The position numbers were made by a program, and so were the translations under genes. A stretch of 61,610 bases of DNA, counting the filler. It is 7 parts of 7 records of this genome, joined end to end, with 100 filler letters (N's around TTAATTAATTAA, not from the genome) between each part and the next. Parts side by side here need not be neighbours in the genome. Positions count along the whole stretch, not along the records: positions 33,496 to 42,908 come from SRR31147125_19262; 6 more parts are not named here. One strand, given 5' to 3'. Below are positions 33,496 to 43,008 of this stretch, piece after piece. Below the pieces are notes generated by a model. That model did no database searches. It saw only the letters and a program-made list of their open reading frames with translations, and was not told the origin of the DNA. Each line of letters begins with the position of its first letter. Position 1 is the first letter of the stretch.

Positions 33496-33496
33496 T

Positions 33497-33541
33497 TGGT
33501 CGGAGCGGCTGGATTTGAACCAGCGGCCACTTGTCCCCCAG
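33497..33541 (-). tRNA. 3' half of tRNA-Pro(GGG), att core (not an intact tRNA)
   Basis: Minus strand CTGGGGG ACAAG TGGCC GCTGG TTCAAAT CCAGC CGCTCCG ACCA; no 5' anticodon-stem strand, D arm or 5' acceptor strand upstream. Confidence 0.88.
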
Positions 33542-33607
33542 GCCAGACATATACATGTGAAAGCCTTGAAATACCGTCTTCTCCAGTTTTTCTATTGCAT
33601 GTAAATA

Positions 33608-33654
33608 CACACAATTCACGAGAGAGCACACAACCCACACAAAGAACCACACAA
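33608..33654. repeat. Four CACACAA direct repeats, putative integrase arm-type sites
   Basis: 33608-33614, 33627-33633, 33636-33642, 33648-33654, between att core and integrase stop. Confidence 0.65.
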
Positions 33655-33658
33655 CGTT

Positions 33659-34669
33659 TTAGGTGCCGAATTTTCCGCTCAGTAGTTGCATGGCTTCTTT
33701 TTCCGAACTCTCAATTGAATGAAGGTAAATCTCCGTGGTTTTGAGTTCCTTATGCCCCAATAAAGCACCAATGGTTTTTTTAGATACCTTTCCGGAATCT
33801 GCCAATAGAGATGCAACAAAATGACGGAGAGCATGGAATCCGAAATCAGGATCGATGCCTGCACGTTTGCAAAGACCCTTCATCAATTTGGGCCTTCTGG
33901 TGTATCTGTCTTCCGTTTTTGTGTTGTAGAAGACCCACATTTGATTGTCCCGTATGACCCACCTTCGTTTCATTATTGAATAAAGCTCCTCGTTCATGGA
34001 GACCTCCACAGGCTCATAAGATCCACCGGCTCTTTTCCGTGTCCACTTTTTGAGGGTCCGCTTCTTAAAGTTGACATCTTCCCATTTCAGTCTCAGCACC
34101 TCGTCGATCCGTGCCATGGAGTAGATGATCGTCAAAATTAAATCTCTCTCATCCGTGTTGGGATCTGCTGCCGCTATCAGCTTCAGGACATCCGTTTCCG
34201 GTGGAATATATTTGGGCTCGGGGTTGTGGGGCATCTTCTTGAGTTTCTTGCATGGGTTCCTGGTGATGACTTCCAGAACATCCTTGGCATAAGAGAAAAC
34301 AGCGCACAAATCCCTTCTATGAGCATTGTAATTGTTATTTGTCGGTCTGGTGTTGAGGTATTGGAAGAGGTGGTGGGCTGTTATCTGCTGAATGGGAAGA
34401 TTCCCGCTGTGTTGTAAAAAGGCCCGACAAACATGGGCCTTTTGCCGATAAGTATTTTTTATGAAGGTTCGTTTAGCAAAGTCCAGGTAGATATTGGCAA
34501 CTTCTTTAAAGGCCATGCCTGCCGGAGTTTTGCCTTGACCGGCTTCTTTTCGGTGTTCTTCCCTGGCGGCCTGTGCTTCGGTTTTGGTCCGATATCCGCT
34601 CCCACTGTATCTCTTCCCGTTCTTTTGAAACTCGTACCTCCACCCCTGGGGTGTTTTGTATAATGCCAT
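33659..34669 (-). CDS. Tyrosine integrase
   Basis: N-terminal arm-binding-like WRYEF...G.RY...Y.TK.EA; catalytic ARIDE (R), FHALRH (H,R), LGH, IY; points toward att. Confidence 0.93.
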   Translation of the reverse strand: MALYKTPQGWRYEFQKNGKRYSGSGYRTKTEAQAAREEHRKEAGQGKTPAGMAFKEVANIYLDFAKRTFIKNTYRQKAHVCRAFLQHSGNLPIQQITAHHLFQYLNTRPTNNNYNAHRRDLCAVFSYAKDVLEVITRNPCKKLKKMPHNPEPKYIPPETDVLKLIAAADPNTDERDLILTIIYSMARIDEVLRLKWEDVNFKKRTLKKWTRKRAGGSYEPVEVSMNEELYSIMKRRWVIRDNQMWVFYNTKTEDRYTRRPKLMKGLCKRAGIDPDFGFHALRHFVASLLADSGKVSKKTIGALLGHKELKTTEIYLHSIESSEKEAMQLLSGKFGT

Positions 34670-34817
34670 CGATAATGTCCTCTCTGAACCTCAAAACCTT
34701 GATTCCCGCCGGATAAAATCCGCACAAAGCCCGTTTGTGCTTATAGACAGCTTCAACAGAGATATTCAAGATTTCAGCCACATTTTGGGGAGTCAATAGT
34801 TTCATAATCATTTCCAT
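34506..34817 (-). CDS. Excisionase-like helix-turn-helix protein overlapping the integrase start
   Basis: LLTPQNVAEILNISVEAVY...LRF HTH directly upstream of int. Confidence 0.75.
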   Translation of the reverse strand: MEMIMKLLTPQNVAEILNISVEAVYKHKRALCGFYPAGIKVLRFREDIIDGIIQNTPGVEVRVSKEREEIQWERISDQNRSTGRQGRTPKRSRSRQNSGRHGL

Positions 34818-34851
34818 TCATTTATTGGTTTTCAGCTATTTGAAACTGCCA

Positions 34852-36150
34852 TCAATTCAAAGGATTGTGCATGCCAGCATGGTCTTCGTAAGACTGGACG
34901 CTATGCAGGTAAATCAATGTGGTGCTTACATCTTCATGGCCGGCAAGGTGCTTGAGATCCATCAACTTGACCCCGGCCTGGGCCAGCATGGTAAGCGCTG
35001 TATGCCTCAGAGCATGGGCGCTGATAACCTTGTCACCATGATCGAGCTTGGCTGCTGCAACGTATTTTTCGATCATCTCGGCCATGGCCCTGGTGGTGAG
35101 TGGCCGCTTCTTCCGAACCTGACTCCACCGGATGTCCAGCCCTCCGGAGGCGACATGGTACCGGAAGCCGACAAAAAGGGGAGAGTCCGGATCGAACTTG
35201 ATGCGGCAGTGCTCCATCCAGTCGTCAAAAGCTTCCAGAGCCTTGCCGTTGAGGATAATGGGCGTATCCTTCCGGTTGCCGACCCTCCCTTTCCGGTCAC
35301 GGATCCATAGTTTCTGCTGGCCTTTGACCCGCTCGGTTTCCAGATCCTGGTAGGTGAGCTTACAAATTTCATTGATCCGAAGGCCATAGGTGAGCATCAA
35401 CCGAAGTATGGCATAGTCGCGCCGTCCGATGAGAGAGCGCCGATCCGGTTGCCGCATCAGCTTCTGTGCCTCTTTTTTGCTCAGTACCGAGTAATATCCT
35501 TTGTCTTTCTTCGGTGGGGCCAGCCCCAGGCGTTTGAAGTCCAATGGGTTCTTGCCAAACTTCCGATTTGAAGCGGACAGGAATTTCAAAAAGCTGTTGA
35601 TGGAAATGAACTTGTTCCAGATGGTGGCATTCTTCTGCCGTTTCTCAACCTGGAGATGATCGCGGTATGCGATGAAATCATCCATGGTCAGATCTTTGGG
35701 ATCCTTGCCCACATGGGAGAGGAAGAGCCGGACCGCTCCGCCATACGTCCGCTTGGTACTGTCGCAGATGAGGGAATCCAACCAATGTTCACGCAGATTG
35801 GCAAAGCTTTCTGACTCCACATAGGTACCGCCCCGGAAGATCTGCATATCACCGTAATTCTGACCAATGGGGGAGGTAAAGCCTTTGATCTTGCCCTCCA
35901 GGTATTTGAAGAACCGATTCAATATAGAAAACTTCCGCTTGATGGTTTTGGCCTTGACGGTCTGTCCCAGGTGCTCCCGGTATTTCATGAACACCTTTTG
36001 CGTCAGGCTGTCTATGGGGCCGGTGTAGTAGCTGAAGAATTGCCGGATCTCCGAGCGGTACACTTTCCGGCTGGACTCACTTTTGACGGTCTTCAGGTAT
36101 CGATCGAACAGCTTTTTACCCTGGTCATATTCTATGTATGACATTGGCAT
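34852..36150 (-). CDS. Second tyrosine recombinase with two tandem core-binding (SAM-like) segments
   Basis: S.K.Y...IR.F...KTIKRKFSILNRFF and STKRTY..AVRLF...ATIWNKFISINSFL; RDYAIL, GLRINE, KG, SAHALRHT, AGH, IY. Confidence 0.9.
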   Translation of the reverse strand: MPMSYIEYDQGKKLFDRYLKTVKSESSRKVYRSEIRQFFSYYTGPIDSLTQKVFMKYREHLGQTVKAKTIKRKFSILNRFFKYLEGKIKGFTSPIGQNYGDMQIFRGGTYVESESFANLREHWLDSLICDSTKRTYGGAVRLFLSHVGKDPKDLTMDDFIAYRDHLQVEKRQKNATIWNKFISINSFLKFLSASNRKFGKNPLDFKRLGLAPPKKDKGYYSVLSKKEAQKLMRQPDRRSLIGRRDYAILRLMLTYGLRINEICKLTYQDLETERVKGQQKLWIRDRKGRVGNRKDTPIILNGKALEAFDDWMEHCRIKFDPDSPLFVGFRYHVASGGLDIRWSQVRKKRPLTTRAMAEMIEKYVAAAKLDHGDKVISAHALRHTALTMLAQAGVKLMDLKHLAGHEDVSTTLIYLHSVQSYEDHAGMHNPLN

Positions 36151-36166
36151 CGTATACGCCTCATAT

Positions 36167-36445
36167 TCACGGATAGAACGGATGGTTGACCCAACCGGAA
36201 ATCATTGCCCTGTCGGCAGGTGCCAAAGAGTGAATTGCATTGACCAGGTCAAATCCGTAGGTGTTTTCATTGAGCCATACCGCTGCAAAGAACTTGGCAA
36301 GATGCCTCTCTCCATCACTCATGACCTTGAGTTCTCGCTTGAAGCGTTTGATATCCATTTGCCTTGTTTTTCTATTCCACAGCCCCGAAATACGGGGGTA
36401 TCTTTCCAGCAGTGTGAAGAAACGATCGTAGTTTTCCATTTTCAT
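36167..36445 (-). CDS. Small hypothetical protein
   Basis: 92 aa, AAGGA RBS, MSDGERHLAKFFAAVW...FDLV.A...W...PFYP, co-oriented with neighbours. Confidence 0.7.
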   Translation of the reverse strand: MKMENYDRFFTLLERYPRISGLWNRKTRQMDIKRFKRELKVMSDGERHLAKFFAAVWLNENTYGFDLVNAIHSLAPADRAMISGWVNHPFYP

Positions 36446-36917
36446 ATTTCCTTTGCCGTAGTGCCGGGTCTTCTCTCATTCGTAGTTTCAGAAGGCCGAC
36501 AATGGCATTCTTGGCGGTTTTTCGATCCAACTCTTTAATGCTGTCCACCTTGAAGAGCTTCTTCAACCAGTGGTTGAAATACTCAATGCTCCAGTGCAGG
36601 GAGATGATGGACTCCCGAATGAAATTGATCTGATGCGCAGTGGGCAGTTTGGCCGCTTTGGTTCCGATTGCCTCTTCGGTTCTTGGGGGCCATGGTCGGG
36701 TCTGCTTCGGATCCGATCGGCCAGTCAGCTCATTAATGATGAATGACGCTTCCTGTTTTGATAGGAACTCCATGGAAGGGATACCGGTTAAAGAAAGAAT
36801 CAGATCATCCAGGCTTTCCTGATCATGGGAGACCGACGTATTCAGAGATGCCTCGATCTTCCATTCCTGCCTGTCGGTGATGCATTCAAAGCATCGTTTG
36901 GGGTATGGCTTGCTCAT
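36372..36917 (-). CDS. Phage Mu GemA/gp16-like protein
   Basis: S...LS..EA..II..L...T..QI..I......L.W.......WL...FKVD....L....A...I.GL pattern. Confidence 0.55.
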   Translation of the reverse strand: MSKPYPKRCFECITDRQEWKIEASLNTSVSHDQESLDDLILSLTGIPSMEFLSKQEASFIINELTGRSDPKQTRPWPPRTEEAIGTKAAKLPTAHQINFIRESIISLHWSIEYFNHWLKKLFKVDSIKELDRKTAKNAIVGLLKLRMREDPALRQRKYENGKLRSFLHTAGKIPPYFGAVE

Positions 36918-36919
36918 TG

Positions 36920-38845
36920 CTACACCTCATCATCGGTGAAGCTTTTACTAAGCAGGTGGTAGTTGGTGCCCCTGATGGCTTTGTGACAACGCTCTACTTC
37001 CCACCCGGCAGTTTTCAGAATACTTTCGGAGTCGGAGAGCCTTGATGCCAATACCTTGGATTTATTACCGAATGGATTAGTGATCCCTTTTGTTTTGGCG
37101 AGCATATTGAAGGCGGTACAGAGCTCACTGGTTGACGCAAGGAATTTGACCTCTACCAATTCCCCTTCCGGTTTTTTTAAAATTGTTGTTCGTTTAATGC
37201 CGTATTCATCAATGAAATACTTTTGTTCAACAAATCGCTCACATTCTGCGGCCAGGACATCAAGACGGTAAAGAATATCATTGGTTCCTTTTTGCATGGA
37301 ATCGGCAATCTCGTTCTGCTCGCTGATCCAGTCATCCAATATTGCCAGCGCTGCTTTTTCACCGGTGTGCTCCGGATGTGGGATATATTTCACGATCTGG
37401 TTGCAGTAGAGGTAGAGACAGGCAAGCATATCGTCCAGTCGCTCTTTGGCATGCCCGGCTCTTTCCTTTTGCAGGAATCGATATATTTCAGCCCTGTGTT
37501 GTTCAAAATCCGGCAGGATATCATGGGCCACAATTTTCAATATGGCGCTCAGGATCAAATCTCGGTGCTTCTCTATTTGGGCCTTCAACACTGTCTCACC
37601 GGGAAAATTGCCGCTCTGGAACTCTTTTTTGAAAAAGATATCCACCACTCTCGTTATCAGTTCAGATTTTACAAACGGCTCTATGGATGTGATGAAAACG
37701 TGAGTCTTGTTATCTTCGTAAATGTTGTCAGATTTGGTGTTGCCATCTCGTTTTTGGTTGCCGATGCCGGTTGCCGCGACAGTCAAAAACGCCAACATCT
37801 CTTTGTTTATATCTGCCTGCTCCAGATTGTCCATGAACAGCGCCATGCTTTTGATTGCCTCGGATCGATAAGACGCCACCGAACCTTGGGTAAGACCGTC
37901 TCTACCGAACACCAGATAGGATATGAGTCTGGCAGCGCATGACTTCGCCACTCCCGCATCTCCGGAAAACTTGGTGATTCCCCTGGCGTTGACCACTTCA
38001 ATGAGAATCATGGAAAAGATCCGGGCCGCAATGTAATACTTGTTGGAAGCGCTGCACGCCAAATTGTCGAGGATGAGCTCATACAACTTATCCATTCCGG
38101 CCTGGACATCGGCATCGGATCGGAAGTTAACGGGCAGTATTCTCGGGGTCGCTTGCAATAACACCTGATCGTCGTTGGCGCCGTTTTGAATCAGCTCTAT
38201 TCTACCGGCTTGGAGCTTGAGGATGATATTGTCTGCACAGTTCAGGTCAATGAAATGGGCATTGTTTTGAAGATCGGTATGTGTCCAGCCCATGACCTCG
38301 GTGTGTTTGCCGTTGAGGTATGCCCTTGCCTTCAACACCTCCAAGATGACCTTGGTGTTGTTTTCCGCATAGTTGAGTCCCGCAACATCATAGAGTAGCG
38401 CTTTGAAAGCGGCACCGCTGCCAATGTCATAAATTTTCCCCTGATAGAAGAGTCGGCAGTCTTCGCCATGGACGAAGAAACCACCAAGGGCTTTGAAGTA
38501 TTCGAACACCACCTCTCCGATGTCGTTGACGTAGTGCTTGATATCGCAGAGTTTGAACCAGGCACGCACGGCCGGTATGATTTGGGTCAATGGCTTCAGA
38601 TATCGCTTTGTATTTCCATAGAGCCGTTTGAATTCTATCGCCGGATTCGGAACGGATCTGAGGTAATCATCGATATCATTGGCGTTGCGATCGAACACAA
38701 TGGAATCGAGGATGAGTTGAGTCAACTTCGGGATTTCATTGGCGACGGGCTCATCATCCTGGGCTTCCTTCTGCTTTTTCAGATTGCTTTTTCGAAGCCT
38801 TTCACAGATGGCAACCTGTCGGTCTGAATAGCAATATTTCGACAA
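36920..38845 (-). CDS. C-terminal part of primase-helicase (end of Toprim plus P-loop NTPase and helical C-terminus)
   Basis: NDIDDYL (DnaG-type Toprim end), Walker A-like GDAGVAKS, Walker B-like LFMDNLE; -1 frame relative to upstream primase ORF. Confidence 0.7.
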   Translation of the reverse strand: MSKYCYSDRQVAICERLRKSNLKKQKEAQDDEPVANEIPKLTQLILDSIVFDRNANDIDDYLRSVPNPAIEFKRLYGNTKRYLKPLTQIIPAVRAWFKLCDIKHYVNDIGEVVFEYFKALGGFFVHGEDCRLFYQGKIYDIGSGAAFKALLYDVAGLNYAENNTKVILEVLKARAYLNGKHTEVMGWTHTDLQNNAHFIDLNCADNIILKLQAGRIELIQNGANDDQVLLQATPRILPVNFRSDADVQAGMDKLYELILDNLACSASNKYYIAARIFSMILIEVVNARGITKFSGDAGVAKSCAARLISYLVFGRDGLTQGSVASYRSEAIKSMALFMDNLEQADINKEMLAFLTVAATGIGNQKRDGNTKSDNIYEDNKTHVFITSIEPFVKSELITRVVDIFFKKEFQSGNFPGETVLKAQIEKHRDLILSAILKIVAHDILPDFEQHRAEIYRFLQKERAGHAKERLDDMLACLYLYCNQIVKYIPHPEHTGEKAALAILDDWISEQNEIADSMQKGTNDILYRLDVLAAECERFVEQKYFIDEYGIKRTTILKKPEGELVEVKFLASTSELCTAFNMLAKTKGITNPFGNKSKVLASRLSDSESILKTAGWEVERCHKAIRGTNYHLLSKSFTDDEV

Positions 38846-39780
38846 TTTTTTTCGATTCTTTCCCGATAGGCGATACCGGCCTTATCGTTATCGAAACAGG
38901 TGGTGATTCGTGTGATTTCACCGGATTCCACTTTCTTTTCCAAATACTTTAAATGCACTTCTGTTAATTGTCCGGTCGTGGCAATCACATTGGTGTAACC
39001 AGCATCCAGAAGAGTCAAAAGGTCGTTTTCGCCTTCCACGAGAATGACTTCTCTCTTTTTGAGCGCGGGCATGTTGAGGAAGTGGCCGCCGTTGCCCCGA
39101 AATTCTTTTTTGAGGCGGATATTAAATTTCTTGCGCGAATCTTTGGTGGTGAAATCATAGATTTGACCGTGCTCATCCAGATGGGGATAGATGAAGAGCC
39201 CCGGAGGGAAAAAGTCTCTATATCCGCCTTTTCCGTCTTCCTTGACCACACCGGAGCGGGTGATCTCTTCCATGGGGTACTTCTGCTGTTGAAGCATCCG
39301 GAGGCAGTTGCCGTCAGTGAAGCCCACCCCCATGGCCTTTAAAGTTTCGGGTGAATGGCCACGGTCGTTCTGTTGGTATTGAAGTGCCTTGTGTGTGTTG
39401 TGGAGCACTTGGGCGCAATGTTTGGCCACAGCATCAAATATGGATGCTTTCGGAGTCATGGGCGGTGGTGGTGTGTTGGAACGCTTCGGCGTGTCGATTG
39501 AGTGGTTGTAGACTTCTGCCAGATCCGTCAGCGCTTCATGGTTGGTGCACTTCTCGTATTCCATGACAAAGTCAATGACACTGCCGCCAGCTTCGCATTG
39601 AAAGCAGTTCCATGTTCCTTTTCCCGGAGTGATTTTAACGCAGTCATGGCCACCGCAGTTAGGGCACCCTCCCGGATAGTCGTATCCAGATCCCTGCTTT
39701 TTCAATGTCTGGCCGGTTCGTCGTTCAATTTCTTTTTGGATGTCAACCAGATCCTTTATTGCTTGAAAGTCGTCCTTCAT
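38779..39780 (-). CDS. DnaG-like primase (Zn finger plus Toprim), N-terminal part of primase-helicase
   Basis: CPNCGGHDC...WNCFQC..GG.VIDF, LVEGENDLL, CFDNDKAG; GGAGG RBS. Confidence 0.9.
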   Translation of the reverse strand: MKDDFQAIKDLVDIQKEIERRTGQTLKKQGSGYDYPGGCPNCGGHDCVKITPGKGTWNCFQCEAGGSVIDFVMEYEKCTNHEALTDLAEVYNHSIDTPKRSNTPPPPMTPKASIFDAVAKHCAQVLHNTHKALQYQQNDRGHSPETLKAMGVGFTDGNCLRMLQQQKYPMEEITRSGVVKEDGKGGYRDFFPPGLFIYPHLDEHGQIYDFTTKDSRKKFNIRLKKEFRGNGGHFLNMPALKKREVILVEGENDLLTLLDAGYTNVIATTGQLTEVHLKYLEKKVESGEITRITTCFDNDKAGIAYRERIEKNCRNIAIQTDRLPSVKGFEKAI

Positions 39781-39964
39781 TATTCCTCCATAGATTCATG
39801 TTCAGTTTCCAATCGTGTCAAAACCAATTAAAATAAAAGCAAAAGCAACATTGCATCATCACGATGACTACACCTCTGTACGATTGGTTCTTCTTCCTGG
39901 CTCGGGTTCCGGCTTCCATCCTTTGAGACTTCCATGACGGGTCTATCCGTCGTATTTGAGGCCC

Positions 39965-39993
39965 TTGACAAGCAGGGCCATATATCCTATCGT
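39965..39993 (+). promoter_or_regulatory. Sigma70-type promoter firing antisense to the replication operon
   Basis: TTGACA (39965-39970), 17-nt spacer, TATCGT (39988-39993). Confidence 0.55.
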
Positions 39994-39999
39994 CAATAC

Positions 40000-40097
40000 G
40001 TCGTCCGGGGCCTCGTCTGCCCTCCATAGATTTTTCACGGCCGCTGTTGGCTCCAGCGGCCGTGAGATTCAAGGACTTTTCCTATTGTTTGTCCTTG
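40000..40097 (+). ncRNA. Predicted counter-transcribed small RNA with anti-RBS segment
   Basis: Contains CCTCCATAGATT (40021-40032), identical to 39785-39796 over the primase RBS; perfect 12-bp stem 40035-40065; second stem CAAGGAC/GTCCTTG 40070-40097. Confidence 0.4.
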
Positions 40098-40098
40098 G

Positions 40099-40671
40099 TT
40101 ATCCGGCTTCTCTCACCCTCTGATTTTCACCATGAGTCGGTTGAGAGAGGCTATCTCTTAGATGCACCAACATATCTCGTACAATCCCCGCTTTTGGATA
40201 TTCATTACCGAAGTTCACTATGACTGCATTGAGTTTTTTAATGGCAAGATTGATCCGGTTAATTGTTTCCTGGTCCCTATAAACACCACATTTCAAATTC
40301 TCATATTGATTTGAGGCATCCCTGATGATGGCTTCCGGGCTTCTGCGATATCTCATCTCTACTTGGGTCAATTTCCTTTCTTGGCTCTCAATGTACATTT
40401 CGACAATCTTGTTCAACCCTACTTTGTATTTTGGGGCATCTCCAAAGCTACCGAAATATTCTTCGAAGTCTGCCGTTTCCAAAAGCGCACCAAAAGCCCT
40501 GAGCGCCCAGTTGTCGTATCGAATCCGTTCTTGTCCATCCATGAGATCAATGGTGGTGAAGGGCTCTGGTTTGATGTCGTCTTCAATGTTTTCCATATTA
40601 TTACCTCCCTTGTTTTTCCGGTGATTCCGGAAATTAATGATGTTTGTTGTTCCATTGCTTTTGGCATTCAT
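40099..40671 (-). CDS. Hypothetical protein (alternative start at 40596 after GGAGG)
   Basis: Long ORF co-oriented with ant and primase; no family recognised. Confidence 0.7.
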   Translation of the reverse strand: MNAKSNGTTNIINFRNHRKNKGGNNMENIEDDIKPEPFTTIDLMDGQERIRYDNWALRAFGALLETADFEEYFGSFGDAPKYKVGLNKIVEMYIESQERKLTQVEMRYRRSPEAIIRDASNQYENLKCGVYRDQETINRINLAIKKLNAVIVNFGNEYPKAGIVRDMLVHLRDSLSQPTHGENQRVREAG

Positions 40672-40684
40672 AAATTGCTCTCTT

Positions 40685-41278
40685 TCACTCGACCGAGTCT
40701 TCCATGATTTTCATCTCAGCCATAGTCAAAGCACGCAATTGAGGGTAAGGCTTCAATTCATCAATATTACCTTCACCATTCAAAATGCGCCTTGCCTCTT
40801 CCTTTGCCTGCCTTGCCATATCCCGTTTTGTTTTCAGCGCGGTAAGTTCGGCCCTTATGGAGGCTGTTTTACGCTTTTTTCGATCGATTTGTGATTTTGA
40901 TGGCGGGAAGAAATGAATAAAGAGAGTTTGATAACACTCTTCTTGATAACGAATGATCTTTTCCCGTGCATCACCTTCATATCTGACCGGATTGATTTTG
41001 AAGAGCCAGCCATTGAGATATTCAAGGGGGAGACAAGTCATTTCTCTTTGCTTGTGATCCTTGGCAACTATCATCGTGGCGATGATCTTTGAGGATAGAA
41101 CGATATCTTCTTGCAAGTTACGATGTTGATTTTTCCACTCCAATCCAAGCCGTTCACAAATTGGTTTTACCGGAACTAAACAGTGATCGTCTTTTTCAAC
41201 GATGCCGATTTCATCACCATCAAAGTTGACAAGGCTCAGTTTCTCGAACAGATTTGTTTTTGAAGAATTGGTTGTCAT
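40685..41278 (-). CDS. Phage antirepressor with P22 Ant N-terminal domain, copy 1
   Basis: V.F.GD.I...VPVKPICE.LGL.W..Q...D.KQREM.CLPLEYLNGWLF.IN...EKII.YQ.ECY..L..HF; AAGGAG RBS before ATG 41278. Confidence 0.88.
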   Translation of the reverse strand: MTTNSSKTNLFEKLSLVNFDGDEIGIVEKDDHCLVPVKPICERLGLEWKNQHRNLQEDIVLSSKIIATMIVAKDHKQREMTCLPLEYLNGWLFKINPVRYEGDAREKIIRYQEECYQTLFIHFFPPSKSQIDRKKRKTASIRAELTALKTKRDMARQAKEEARRILNGEGNIDELKPYPQLRALTMAEMKIMEDSVE

Positions 41279-41292
41279 GTGATCTCCTTTTA

Positions 41293-41511
41293 TTATGCGT
41301 GGTTGGTAGCCTGAACTGTTGTTTCCTCGGGCCATAGATAATCGAAATCTTTTTGAAGTATCAACGCAATGATCTTCTTGACTTTGGGCGAATCGTAACG
41401 CCCATTGATCACCCTGCTGATGTGACTTCTCGAATATCCTGTTGCTTCCATAAGGTCGGGGATTCCGACACCTTGATTGAACATTTCTTTTCTGATATTT
41501 TTACTATTCAT
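41293..41511 (-). CDS. Cro/Ner-like HTH regulator
   Basis: DL...TGYSRSHISRVING...IA..L......LWP; GAGGTG RBS; divergent from cI-like gene. Confidence 0.82.
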   Translation of the reverse strand: MNSKNIRKEMFNQGVGIPDLMEATGYSRSHISRVINGRYDSPKVKKIIALILQKDFDYLWPEETTVQATNHA

Positions 41512-41540
41512 AAGCACCTCTTGCGCACTATGGTTTATAT

Positions 41541-41574
41541 GGCGCATTGTGCGTCACGTAAATTTGCTTGTCAA
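41541..41574 (-). promoter_or_regulatory. Leftward promoter overlapped by a palindromic operator candidate
   Basis: Minus strand TTGACA (41574-41569), 17 nt, CACAAT (41551-41546); imperfect palindrome GGCGCATTGTGCGTC 41541-41555. Confidence 0.55.
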
Positions 41575-41618
41575 GTGATTTTTCAACAACCTGCGCTATT
41601 TTCTTAAAAAGGCACATT

Positions 41619-42158
41619 ATGTCGAACATCGGTGAACGGATAAAAAAAGTAAGATTTGAGGAAAATCTTTCTCAAATGGATTTTTCTGAAATCATTGGGA
41701 TTCATAGGGGGCACCTCTCAAAAATTGAAAATGGGAAAATGAATCCTACGCCAAAGACTCTTGAACGCATTTACACCTATTTCAATGTCAATAAAGAATG
41801 GTTGCAAGAGGGAAAAGGCATCATGAAAACTGCGGTAGAATCCGAATATCTCAGTAAGGAAGAAGTCGCAGATTTCCGCAGAAAGCTTGATAGGATCAAT
41901 TACCATCTTTTTTCCGAAAGGCTCCAACTACTATCTGACACCATTTCCTACCATGCCAAAATTTTTGACACCCAATCACTGGATTTTCTACGTAATCGCT
42001 TTTATGTAAATCCTGATGACGATGAAGCCAAACAGCTCAAAGAATCGTTTGACCAATTGGTTGAAGAAATGGATTTTTTAAAAGCTGTCATCGGAAAAAC
42101 TTTAAACGGCCCACAAACGCCATCCAGTAAAAACAAAAATTCCGACGATACGAAGTAA
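41619..42158 (+). CDS. XRE/CI-like repressor (HTH_3, no peptidase domain evident)
   Basis: IGERIKKVR....LSQ.DF...IGI....LSKIENG..NP...FNVNKEWL..GKG.M. Confidence 0.88.
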   Translation: MSNIGERIKKVRFEENLSQMDFSEIIGIHRGHLSKIENGKMNPTPKTLERIYTYFNVNKEWLQEGKGIMKTAVESEYLSKEEVADFRRKLDRINYHLFSERLQLLSDTISYHAKIFDTQSLDFLRNRFYVNPDDDEAKQLKESFDQLVEEMDFLKAVIGKTLNGPQTPSSKNKNSDDTK

Positions 42159-42199
42159 GCGGAAACGGATCATGTCGGTTTCGGTTCAGTATCGTCCAA

Positions 42200-42829
42200 T
42201 CATGCGGTTGCCTCTGGAGCGTTGAACAAATCTTCCCGACACAGTTTTTCGAGCTCCATTATGATTAACTCATGGAGCATCGGGCGATCTTCAAAGCTTT
42301 CCAATCTGCCGTTGCCCTTGTGGATACGTACGGCCATTTTATTGGCTAATTCTTCCATTTCTATGTCAGCTTTGGTGTGAGCTATCTCAAGCTTTTTGGT
42401 ATTGAGATTTGTCTTCTGCACAGCGTTTTTCTTTTTCACGCTTCCGATATCGATCTGTGTCTGTTGAGGAAAAAAGTGATTGTAAAGTGCACGATAACAT
42501 TCCTTCTGATAGCGAATGATCTTCTCCCGGCGCTCTCCCTCATACCTGAGTGGGTTAATTTTGAAGAGCCATCCGTTGAGGTACTCAAGGGGGAGACAAA
42601 GCATCTCACGTTGTTTATTATCCTTGGCAACCACCGTCACAATGACCCCCTTTGAATTGAGAACCAAGTCCGATTGAATGTTGCGACGTTGGTCTTTCCA
42701 ATCCAAGTCCAAGGGCTCACAAATTGGTTTTAGTGGAACAAAATACTCCCCATTCTTTTCAATTACGGTTAGCTCATCACCATCGAAAGTCACCATGTTT
42801 ACGTTGACCGGTAGGTTTAATGCTGTCAT
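42200..42829 (-). CDS. Phage antirepressor with P22 Ant N-terminal domain, copy 2
   Basis: Same motif set as copy 1 (CLPLEYLNGWLFKINP.RYEG..REKIIRYQ.ECY), divergent C-terminus. Confidence 0.88.
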   Translation of the reverse strand: MTALNLPVNVNMVTFDGDELTVIEKNGEYFVPLKPICEPLDLDWKDQRRNIQSDLVLNSKGVIVTVVAKDNKQREMLCLPLEYLNGWLFKINPLRYEGERREKIIRYQKECYRALYNHFFPQQTQIDIGSVKKKNAVQKTNLNTKKLEIAHTKADIEMEELANKMAVRIHKGNGRLESFEDRPMLHELIIMELEKLCREDLFNAPEATA

Positions 42830-42847
42830 AGTGTTCTCCCTTTGCTG

Positions 42848-42907
42848 TTATGCTGCGGTTTCAGCAGCGTTCTTGTTGCCTTCCGACCACAGGTAGTCGT
42901 AGTCTTT
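42848..42907 (-). CDS. 3' end of a second Cro/Ner-like gene (truncated by contig edge)
   Basis: KDYDYLWSEGNKNAAETAA* matches KDFDYLWPEETTVQATNHA* of 41293-41511 and occupies the same position before an ant gene. Confidence 0.7.
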   Translation of the reverse strand, partial: KDYDYLWSEGNKNAAETAA

Positions 42908-42908
42908 T

Positions 42909-43008
42909 NNNNNNNNNNNNNNNNNNNNNNNNNNNNNNNNNNNNNNNNNNNNTTAATTAATTAANNNNNNNNNNNNNNNNNNNNNNNNNNNNNNNNNNNN
43001 NNNNNNNN
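42909..43008. other. Artificial contig spacer
   Basis: N44-TTAATTAATTAA-N44. Confidence 0.99.

Follow-up and report, generated by a model that had tools for sequence, protein, structure and literature searches.

The DNA analysed here (the window, 61,610 nt with filler) contains a 9.4-kb contig, positions 33496-42909, that is occupied by an integrative element with a primase gene on the minus strand. Upstream of the primase lies a non-coding gap of 318 nt (39781-40098). An earlier reading of this DNA by a model (the original prediction) had proposed that the gap encodes an antisense RNA against the ribosome-binding site (RBS) of the primase. Every feature that it listed in the gap, namely a promoter, two copies of a 12-mer, two stems and the start of the primase mRNA, was found in place. 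A second assembly of the only matching sequencing run, a DNA run that is possibly the source of the window, agrees letter for letter across the gap; no RNA run was found among those listed for this DNA. The contig carries integrases, a repressor/cro-like pair, antirepressor-like genes, a GemA-like gene and the primase. On the minus strand, the order is a cro-like helix-turn-helix (HTH) gene, an antirepressor-like gene, a gene of 190 aa, the gap, the primase, the GemA-like gene, and two integrases with an excisionase-like gene. The cro-like HTH gene faces the repressor-like gene on the plus strand, and the genes of the element are preceded by Shine-Dalgarno sequences. The 190-aa gene (40099-40671, minus strand) is conserved, with homologues of 28-45% identity at nine distinct loci and no assigned function, and its stop codon lies 34 nt before the hairpin that we call hairpin A.

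The translation start of the primase (39778-39796, minus strand) reads AATCTATGGAGG-AATA-ATG, with the Shine-Dalgarno sequence GGAGG at 39785-39789 and the start codon at 39778-39780. The 12-mer CCTCCATAGATT is present at 39785-39796 and again at 40021-40032. The second copy lies within a predicted small-RNA gene on the plus strand. Its putative promoter, TTGACA-17 nt-TATCGT (39965-39993, plus strand), has 10 of 12 matches, and the same motif is found in the same place and on the same strand in eight relatives. From the position of this promoter, transcription would start near 40000. The predicted 5' part of the RNA (40000-40034, plus strand) is single-stranded and ends in a U-run (40031-40035). 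It holds the seed CCTCCATAGATT (40021-40032, plus strand), most bases of which are unpaired in the fold. The seed is the exact complement of the ribosome-binding region of the primase: all 12 bases match at -16 to -5 of the start codon, over the Shine-Dalgarno sequence, and no longer repeat was found anywhere between the RNA gene and the primase. Hairpin A follows (40035-40065, plus strand), starting 39 nt beyond the predicted RNA start and preceded by TTTTT. Its arms, 40035-40046 and 40054-40065, form 12 perfect pairs around a 7-nt loop, with the conserved base GGCCGCT/AGCGGCC, and on the plus strand the stem extends to 14 bp with one U.G pair.

We considered whether the gap could be explained in other ways. 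Hairpin A was rejected as a terminator in the window on both strands, as it has no T-run. A reading of it as a terminator of the sense operon found no support either: the stem is followed by AAAA on the sense strand, and no terminator-like site was found in the gap. The promoter scan found no sense-strand promoter for the primase in the gap. A frame of 69 codons starts at an ATG inside the upstream 12-mer; it has no real homologue and was judged not to be coding. Its codon score (-0.084) is below those of all 204 windows of equal length from real genes, and its sole database match is a stretch of a 2228-aa repeat protein. Compared at the protein level with 126 related loci, the gap showed no similarity to any of them. 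The original prediction had named as a refuting option that the upstream GGAGG is only the RBS of a small open reading frame (ORF). This was rejected, as no start codon follows it and the 69-codon frame is non-coding. A type I toxin-antitoxin system was likewise rejected, since no real small coding gene lies under the antisense RNA. Within the gap there are no further copies of the 12-mer with up to two mismatches, and the only other such copy in the contig (39138-39149) is within the primase gene. Iterons were therefore rejected as the principal explanation.

Pairing between the seed and its target is predicted to be energetically feasible. The 12-bp duplex has a calculated energy of -17.5 kcal/mol, compared to a total opening cost of 8.3 kcal/mol (5.8 kcal/mol for the seed in the small RNA and 2.5 kcal/mol for the target in the sense leader). 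When the seed region was compared with ten translation starts of the contig, the primase start was the best (-31.5 kcal/mol) and the next reached -22.7 kcal/mol. None of 1000 shuffled seeds gave a better value against the primase. Of the two strands, the sense leader has somewhat more structure overall (z -2.98 versus -1.74 for the antisense strand), and these scores do not separate the models.

Taken alone, the evidence from this single sequence is moderately suggestive and not compelling. The promoter scan found two sites in 39300-40700, compared to 1.7 expected from shuffled sequences, and across the whole 9.4-kb contig three sites reached 10 of 12 matches. Exact direct repeats of at least 12 nt within 300 nt, trivial ones excluded, numbered 12 in the window, compared to 1.3 under a Markov model, so local 12-mers are common in real DNA. 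A repeat of at least 12 nt that is anchored at the RBS arose in 8 of 20000 Markov simulations. It was found in none of the upstream regions (450 nt, exact matches) of 83 distinct relatives, where the maximum was 9 nt. Related elements provide the decisive support.

Eight related primase-carrying integrative elements, with ~38-47% primase identity, share the arrangement on the strand opposite the primase. We compared nine elements: that of the window and those designated L058, L002, L004/L005, L062, L008, L137, L135 and L059. The conserved order is a TTGAC(A/T) promoter, a spacer of 16-17 nt, a single-stranded 5' part of 30-56 nt, a U-rich stretch and a 12-bp hairpin with the GGCCGCT/AGCGGCC base seen in the window. 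The RNA gene sits between the module of the conserved 190-aa gene and the primase, and the window's copy is in this position. Six elements were selected by the motif of hairpin A alone (the window, L058, L002, L004/L005, L062 and L008). On the antisense strand of all six, exactly 17 nt separate TTGAC(A/T) from a -10 box, and the predicted RNA start is 30-56 nt away from the hairpin. L137, L135 and L059 were selected by the promoter motif, among relatives that have another hairpin (hairpin B, described below), and all three have a hairpin of the same family with a T-tail at the expected distance.

Conservation of the promoter and covariation in the stem had been proposed as tests of the original prediction, and both were found. 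TTGAC is invariant in the nine elements, as is the A in the second position of the -10 box. Eight elements have a spacer of 17 nt and one has a spacer of 16 nt, and the spacer sequences are unrelated. The RNAalifold consensus of six sequences has 12 pairs in the hairpin, three of which are changed on both sides, and further Watson-Crick switches are seen across the nine elements. MAFFT alignments that include the window and L058 misplace the register of the 5' arm, so the pair tables were anchored on each sequence's own fold. In the resulting table, all nine hairpins have the same three basal pairs, and at several other positions one Watson-Crick type is exchanged for another; seven pairs at the base of the window's hairpin are those of the family majority. 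The signs of structure also differ between the strands. There are 11 G.U pairs in the hairpins on the small-RNA strand versus 2 on the mRNA strand, and six of the nine fold more stably on the small-RNA strand. All nine have a U-rich stretch on the 5' side of the hairpin. The 12 nt that follow the hairpin on the small-RNA strand contain 7, 8, 10, 6, 6, 9, 7 and 9 T in the eight relatives, compared to 0-5 on the mRNA strand. In L062, which comes from the cultured strain NaphS2 (recorded as a delta proteobacterium), the predicted RNA would be ~80 nt long and run from about 3368, some 7 nt past the -10 box, to the T-tail at about 3280.

A covariance model (R2) was built from six relatives. The elements outside the model building scored 22.2 bits (L058) and 15.4 bits (L059), and R2 had no matches in 50 viral loci. 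Across 151 genomes of the order, R2 found two known members and six matches of 26.5-28.1 bits; the latter had no element gene within 1.5 kb and were therefore treated as ordinary terminators. A generic scan for a promoter plus a hairpin missed known members and was not used.

A further test proposed with the original prediction was whether the two 12-mers vary together between relatives. To quantify the match, each element was compared with its own primase start region (-35 to +6), using the longest exact run as the statistic. Co-variation was found in part of the family. The match is exact over 12 nt in the window (shuffle p < 0.001), 10 nt in L002 (p 0.003), 10 nt in L062 (p 0.003) and 9 nt in L135. 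In L062, both copies differ from those of L002 and 10 nt are still matched. In L135, the match is just upstream of the Shine-Dalgarno sequence and a further 7 nt pair across a one-base bulge. Two elements match with a wobble pair: L005 over 9 bp with a single mismatch giving G.U (shuffle p 0.16) and L058 over 10 bp with a single mismatch giving U.G (shuffle p 0.013 with G.U). L008 (shuffle p 0.6), L137 and L059 have no convincing match.

The cognate exact runs in the nine elements are 12, 5, 10, 6, 10, 6, 4, 9 and 6 nt. The 66 cross-lineage non-cognate pairs have a mean run of 5.15 nt; four of them reach 7 nt and one reaches 9 nt. When each of the seven lineages was represented by a single element, none of 1854 derangements reached the observed cognate sum. 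In the window, L002 and L062, no match across the 214-615 nt that separate the RNA gene from the primase is longer than the one at the RBS. The ribosome-binding regions of the primases and the seeds differ between lineages, while the antisense promoter, the hairpin and the tail are conserved.

In this family, the parts of the gene are conserved as a unit, the signs of structure are strand-specific and the complementarity between seed and target is lineage-specific. These comparisons support the antisense, anti-RBS reading of the gap that had been proposed from the window alone. We consider it fairly likely that the gap encodes a small non-coding RNA that is transcribed against the primase operon and pairs with the primase RBS, and we are rather more confident that the RNA family is real in the relatives. 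The proposed mechanism is as follows. The sigma-70-type promoter at 39965-39993 would start the RNA near 40000. The RNA would consist of a mostly unpaired 5' part with the 12-nt seed, the U-run and the very stable hairpin. The seed would pair with AAUCUAUGGAGG on the primase mRNA, cover the Shine-Dalgarno sequence 4 nt before the start codon and block 30S binding, which would keep the replication protein of the element low. The RNA would also be fully complementary to the leader that it overlaps, a second site, so that transcripts reading through from the upstream regulatory genes would carry two pairing sites. After induction, heavy rightward-to-leftward transcription could titrate the RNA and collide with its promoter, thereby releasing the primase. 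It is quite possible, and we suggest it tentatively, that the RNA acts as an 'addressed' replication brake. Its seed would be a copy, moved to a new place, of the RBS region of the element's own primase. Seed and target would co-evolve, so that each lineage would silence only its own primase, and the RNA would serve as an element-specific determinant of immunity or incompatibility.

Several observations weigh against this interpretation. Three of the seven lineages (L008, L137 and L059) are without a convincing complement of the primase start, so not every member of the family would pair with its primase. The exact run in L058 is only 5 nt, and a helix of 10 bp forms there only with a wobble pair. 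When G.U is allowed, there are non-cognate pairs that reach 11-12, so the wobble-based matches are weaker evidence. The window's copy has no T-run after hairpin A on either strand, with 3 T in 12 nt. A second, weaker stem of 7-8 pairs with a 14-nt loop (40069-40098, plus strand), which has no counterpart in the relatives, may or may not stand in for the absent terminator tail. With R2, the window (40008-40075, plus strand) scores only 9.0 bits, with an E-value of 0.11 in 9.4 kb, and is third in the contig; its membership of the family therefore rests on the base of the stem, the promoter and the position. A first scan for repeats gave no match of at least 10 nt in 83 relatives; it covered 450 nt upstream, was too close to the gene and was superseded by a search further upstream. 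As the matches were noticed only after the hairpin had led further upstream, the route to them was in part post hoc. The sequences of the relatives come from metagenome contigs, draft genomes or metagenome-assembled genomes (MAGs). The production of the RNA, its two ends and its repression of translation are inferred from sequence. Finally, a motif bound by a protein would account for a direct repeat on the sense strand just as well.

The last point leads to a different explanation, in which the 12-mers, and the 10-mers of the relatives, are sites on DNA or on the sense RNA for one protein, the primase or another regulator, acting at an operator or at origin iterons, and the hairpin is a terminator or a signal for single-strand initiation. 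The repeats are direct on the sense strand, two similar 10-mers stand in tandem at the start of the primase in relatives of the L002 group, and repeats and hairpins are frequent close to the primase gene of primase-driven replicons. Against this, there are only two copies, the sole two-mismatch copy being inside the primase gene. Moreover, the motif is wholly different between lineages in which the antisense promoter, hairpin and tail are conserved, and both internal mismatches, in L005 and L058, give G.U in an RNA duplex. We regard protein sites as quite improbable.

The relatives have a second conserved structure, on the sense strand. Hairpin B consists of 3-6 AGCCRG motifs, a hairpin with the base AGCCRG/CYGGCT and a T-run, and is located upstream of an AlpA-like gene or of the primase. 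It lies at 3880-3955 in L058, 3559-3626 in L002, 3631-3695 in L062, 3623-3690 in L005, 2690-2765 in L059, 3172-3239 in L008, 1097-1168 in L137 and 2759-2829 in L135. A covariance model of hairpin B (R1) scored 41.7-77 bits in nine loci (eight distinct sequences) and had no matches in 50 viral loci. Hairpin B could be a regulated terminator or a protein-binding array. In the window, a decayed counterpart is present at 39823-39911 (minus strand) with an R1 score of 9.1 bits. Its AGCCRG motifs are at -134 and -122, compared to -139 to -104 in L058, the same distance from the primase.

Hairpin B bears on the possibility that the small RNA is real and acts in cis only. Pairing with the overlapped leader would then lead to cleavage, attenuation or transcriptional interference, and the RBS matches would have no function. 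The sense terminator that relatives have downstream of the overlapped leader would suit attenuation of the pT181/pIP501 kind, and three of the seven lineages have the RNA gene with no match at the primase start. However, four elements have cognate-specific matches of 9-12 nt and two more have differences that preserve wobble pairing, and in the window the sense terminator is decayed (9.1 bits), yet the seed match is the longest of the family. A function in cis only is thus unlikely in our assessment, and we continue with pairing at the primase RBS as the preferred reading.

Several parts found between hairpin A and the primase in the relatives are missing from the window. Between hairpins A and B, relatives have a small ORF that encodes 58-75 aa and has a strong Shine-Dalgarno sequence (for example L062 3421-3600, L005 3407-3591, L008 2953-3129 and L058 3623-3850). 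An AlpA-like HTH gene of 73-78 aa lies just before the primase in L002, L005, L062 and L059. The element of the window is without the small ORF, the AlpA-like gene and an intact hairpin B, and its gap is 318 nt, versus 588-2670 nt with extra genes in seven relatives. In L003 and L060, the next gene follows within 12 nt. The window's element is probably a reduced member of the family, in which a deletion on the upstream side removed the T-tail.

Such a deletion raises the question of whether the window's arrangement is a relic, its tail lost together with the small ORF, the AlpA-like gene and hairpin B, and its 12-mer left over or a product of chance. The missing T-tail, the weak R2 score, the short gap compared to 588-2670 nt in the seven relatives and a number of local exact 12-mers in the window about ten times the Markov expectation all fit this view. 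However, the window has kept the longest perfect seed match, a consensus -35 box, the 17-nt spacer and a perfect 12-bp stem. In addition, the flanks of the two 12-mer copies are unrelated, so there was no recent segmental duplication. A relic seems quite improbable. A 13-nt block, ACTGAACATGAAT (39794-39806, minus strand), is identical in L058, where it also lies just 5' of an otherwise unrelated ribosome-binding region.

The relatives are distant. Searches with the primase, 190-aa and 641-aa proteins found no close relatives in viral or genome contigs. The best primase relative at the protein level is P0001 (58% identity), and the nearest comparable locus is L058 (46-47% primase identity), with nothing closer in 401 genomes of the order of L058. 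Nucleotide similarity between the gap and the relatives is limited to ~30-45 nt just before the RBS. A nucleotide search of phage and plasmid collections with the gap gave no matches, nor did a search of viral contigs for the exact hairpin pattern. A prediction from a single sequence could be checked only via the conserved hairpin further upstream in distant relatives.

The original prediction did not recognise the RNA as a named family, and in our searches neither the window nor the relatives had a match to an Rfam family. A scan of 38500-41500 of the window with all 4227 models of Rfam 15 (E up to 1) gave only an unrelated match of 14.7 bits outside the gap. The eight relatives gave no matches at the gathering threshold, and L062 3150-3750 (E up to 1) gave one unrelated match only. 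The models scanned presumably include the families of C4/CI, CopA, sar and IsrK. Among the results listed by full-text literature searches, nothing relevant to such an RNA in primase-carrying integrative elements was found. If the RNA is made, the R2 family, which has no Rfam match, would be an undescribed family of antisense small RNAs.

Plasmids and a few coliphages are the classical cases of replication genes under antisense control; for integrative elements of environmental anaerobes, such control has, to our knowledge, hardly been documented. Among the phage RNAs, C4 RNA is processed from the sense transcript, and P22 sar covers the ant ribosome-binding site, overlapping its target directly. 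According to PMC4825925, P4 CI RNA is processed from the leader, being cut from the sense transcript, pairs with two repeated sequences, causes premature termination and stops expression of the replication genes. P4 CI and P1/P7 C4 resemble the predicted RNA of the window in being short, encoded in the leader of an operon with replication or antirepressor genes and complementary over a short length to repeats on the same transcript. They differ in that the predicted RNA has its own promoter on the opposite strand and its target would be the primase RBS.

The plasmid systems provide other likenesses. In the sections of the review PMC5415839 that treat them, CopA/CopT of R1-type plasmids inhibits translation via a leader peptide and translational coupling, and pT181/pIP501 use attenuation by a counter-transcript, with a sense terminator between the leader and rep. 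The same sections name lambda OOP and P22 sar among the antisense RNAs and say that sar 'inhibits anti-repression' (PMC5415839). On this description, CopA is like the window RNA a small RNA against the leader of a replication initiator and an inhibitor of translation, the latter by prediction for the window. In contrast, CopA acts where it overlaps, whereas the window's target is 236 nt away, in a duplicated sequence that changes with the seed; in relatives of the L002 group, 682-709 nt separate hairpin A from the primase start. Unlike R1-type plasmids, the window element integrates into the chromosome. P22 sar is similar in being a small antisense RNA inside a phage regulatory operon that adds a second layer of control. 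Unlike in sar, the overlap and the RBS target are separate in the window. The relatives, in turn, are like pT181/pIP501 in pairing an antisense RNA against a rep leader with a sense terminator (hairpin B). They differ in having one or two genes between the overlapped leader and the terminator, and in the window the terminator is decayed.

If the RNA acts as an addressed brake, it would be a member of none of the families described in Rfam and a hybrid of plasmid counter-transcripts and the immunity RNAs of P4 and P1. On that same reading, we can suggest with some hesitation that the family is one found in integrative elements of sulfate-reducing and related anaerobes. Provided that it is made, the RNA would represent an undescribed family with a clear target. 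The use of unrelated seeds for the same job across lineages would be a natural experiment on specificity, cross-immunity and the co-evolution of seed and target. The analysis also corrects the annotation in two respects: several contigs are joined in series in the window, and a single long gene encodes the primase.

The primase (36920-39780, minus strand) appears in the window to be split into frames of 333 aa and 641 aa at a homopolymer (38846-38852, seven T on the plus strand). The two parts are covered by positions 28-302 and 512-933 of phrog_47. In ten relatives, the open primase frames are 718-1023 aa long, and at least 925 aa in nine of them. The second assembly, made from the sole matching run, has one extra T after 38845. 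With this base, the two frames join, and they therefore form one gene. The PHROG match, the relatives and the second assembly together support a single frame of ~975 codons with a zinc ribbon, a Toprim domain and a C-terminal part. The split is probably a homopolymer assembly error; from the contigs alone, a programmed -1 slip at the A-run could also account for it. Within the primase gene, at 39020-39050 on the plus strand, there is a terminator-like hairpin with a T-rich tail that is the best R2 match in the contig (15.2 bits). It may be due to chance or mark the end of another antisense transcript.

The original prediction had treated the window as one continuous genome stretch, which is wrong. 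The linkers on either side of the element contig (33396-33495 and 42910-43008) are runs of N flanking a six-frame stop spacer, TTAATTAATTAA, and join separate contigs. As the window is a chain of separate contigs, genes on opposite sides of the linkers are not genomic neighbours. The G+C content of the element contig is 40-53% (46-53% over 33500-40500), versus 33-42% in the adjoining parts. Relatives of the primase come mostly from MAGs of Desulfobacterota, Nitrospirota and similar groups. Given the contrast in G+C content and these relatives, the element contig may have been binned with the wrong organism, and the neighbouring low-GC parts of the window are uninformative about the host of the element. 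The second assembly extends the element contig by 4.9 kb and 2 kb, to 16.3 kb.

At the start of the contig, beside the integrase, lies the 3' part of a tRNA with its CCA end (33497-33545, minus strand), and no whole tRNA was found on the element contig. The piece looks like a copy of an attachment site. A contig of 44 nt with higher depth in the same run has the same tRNA piece with a different continuation. The promoter scan also found TTGACA-17-CACAAT (41546-41574, minus strand) before the cro-like gene, where this gene and the repressor-like gene diverge. This is probably the early promoter of the element. The element uses TTGACA-17 promoters, since one (41574-41546) precedes the cro-like gene, the start of which is probably an internal ATG behind AGAGGTG. 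Two antirepressor-like paralogues with a P22_AR_N domain, at 40905-41075 and 42468-42638, are 75% identical across 171 nt.

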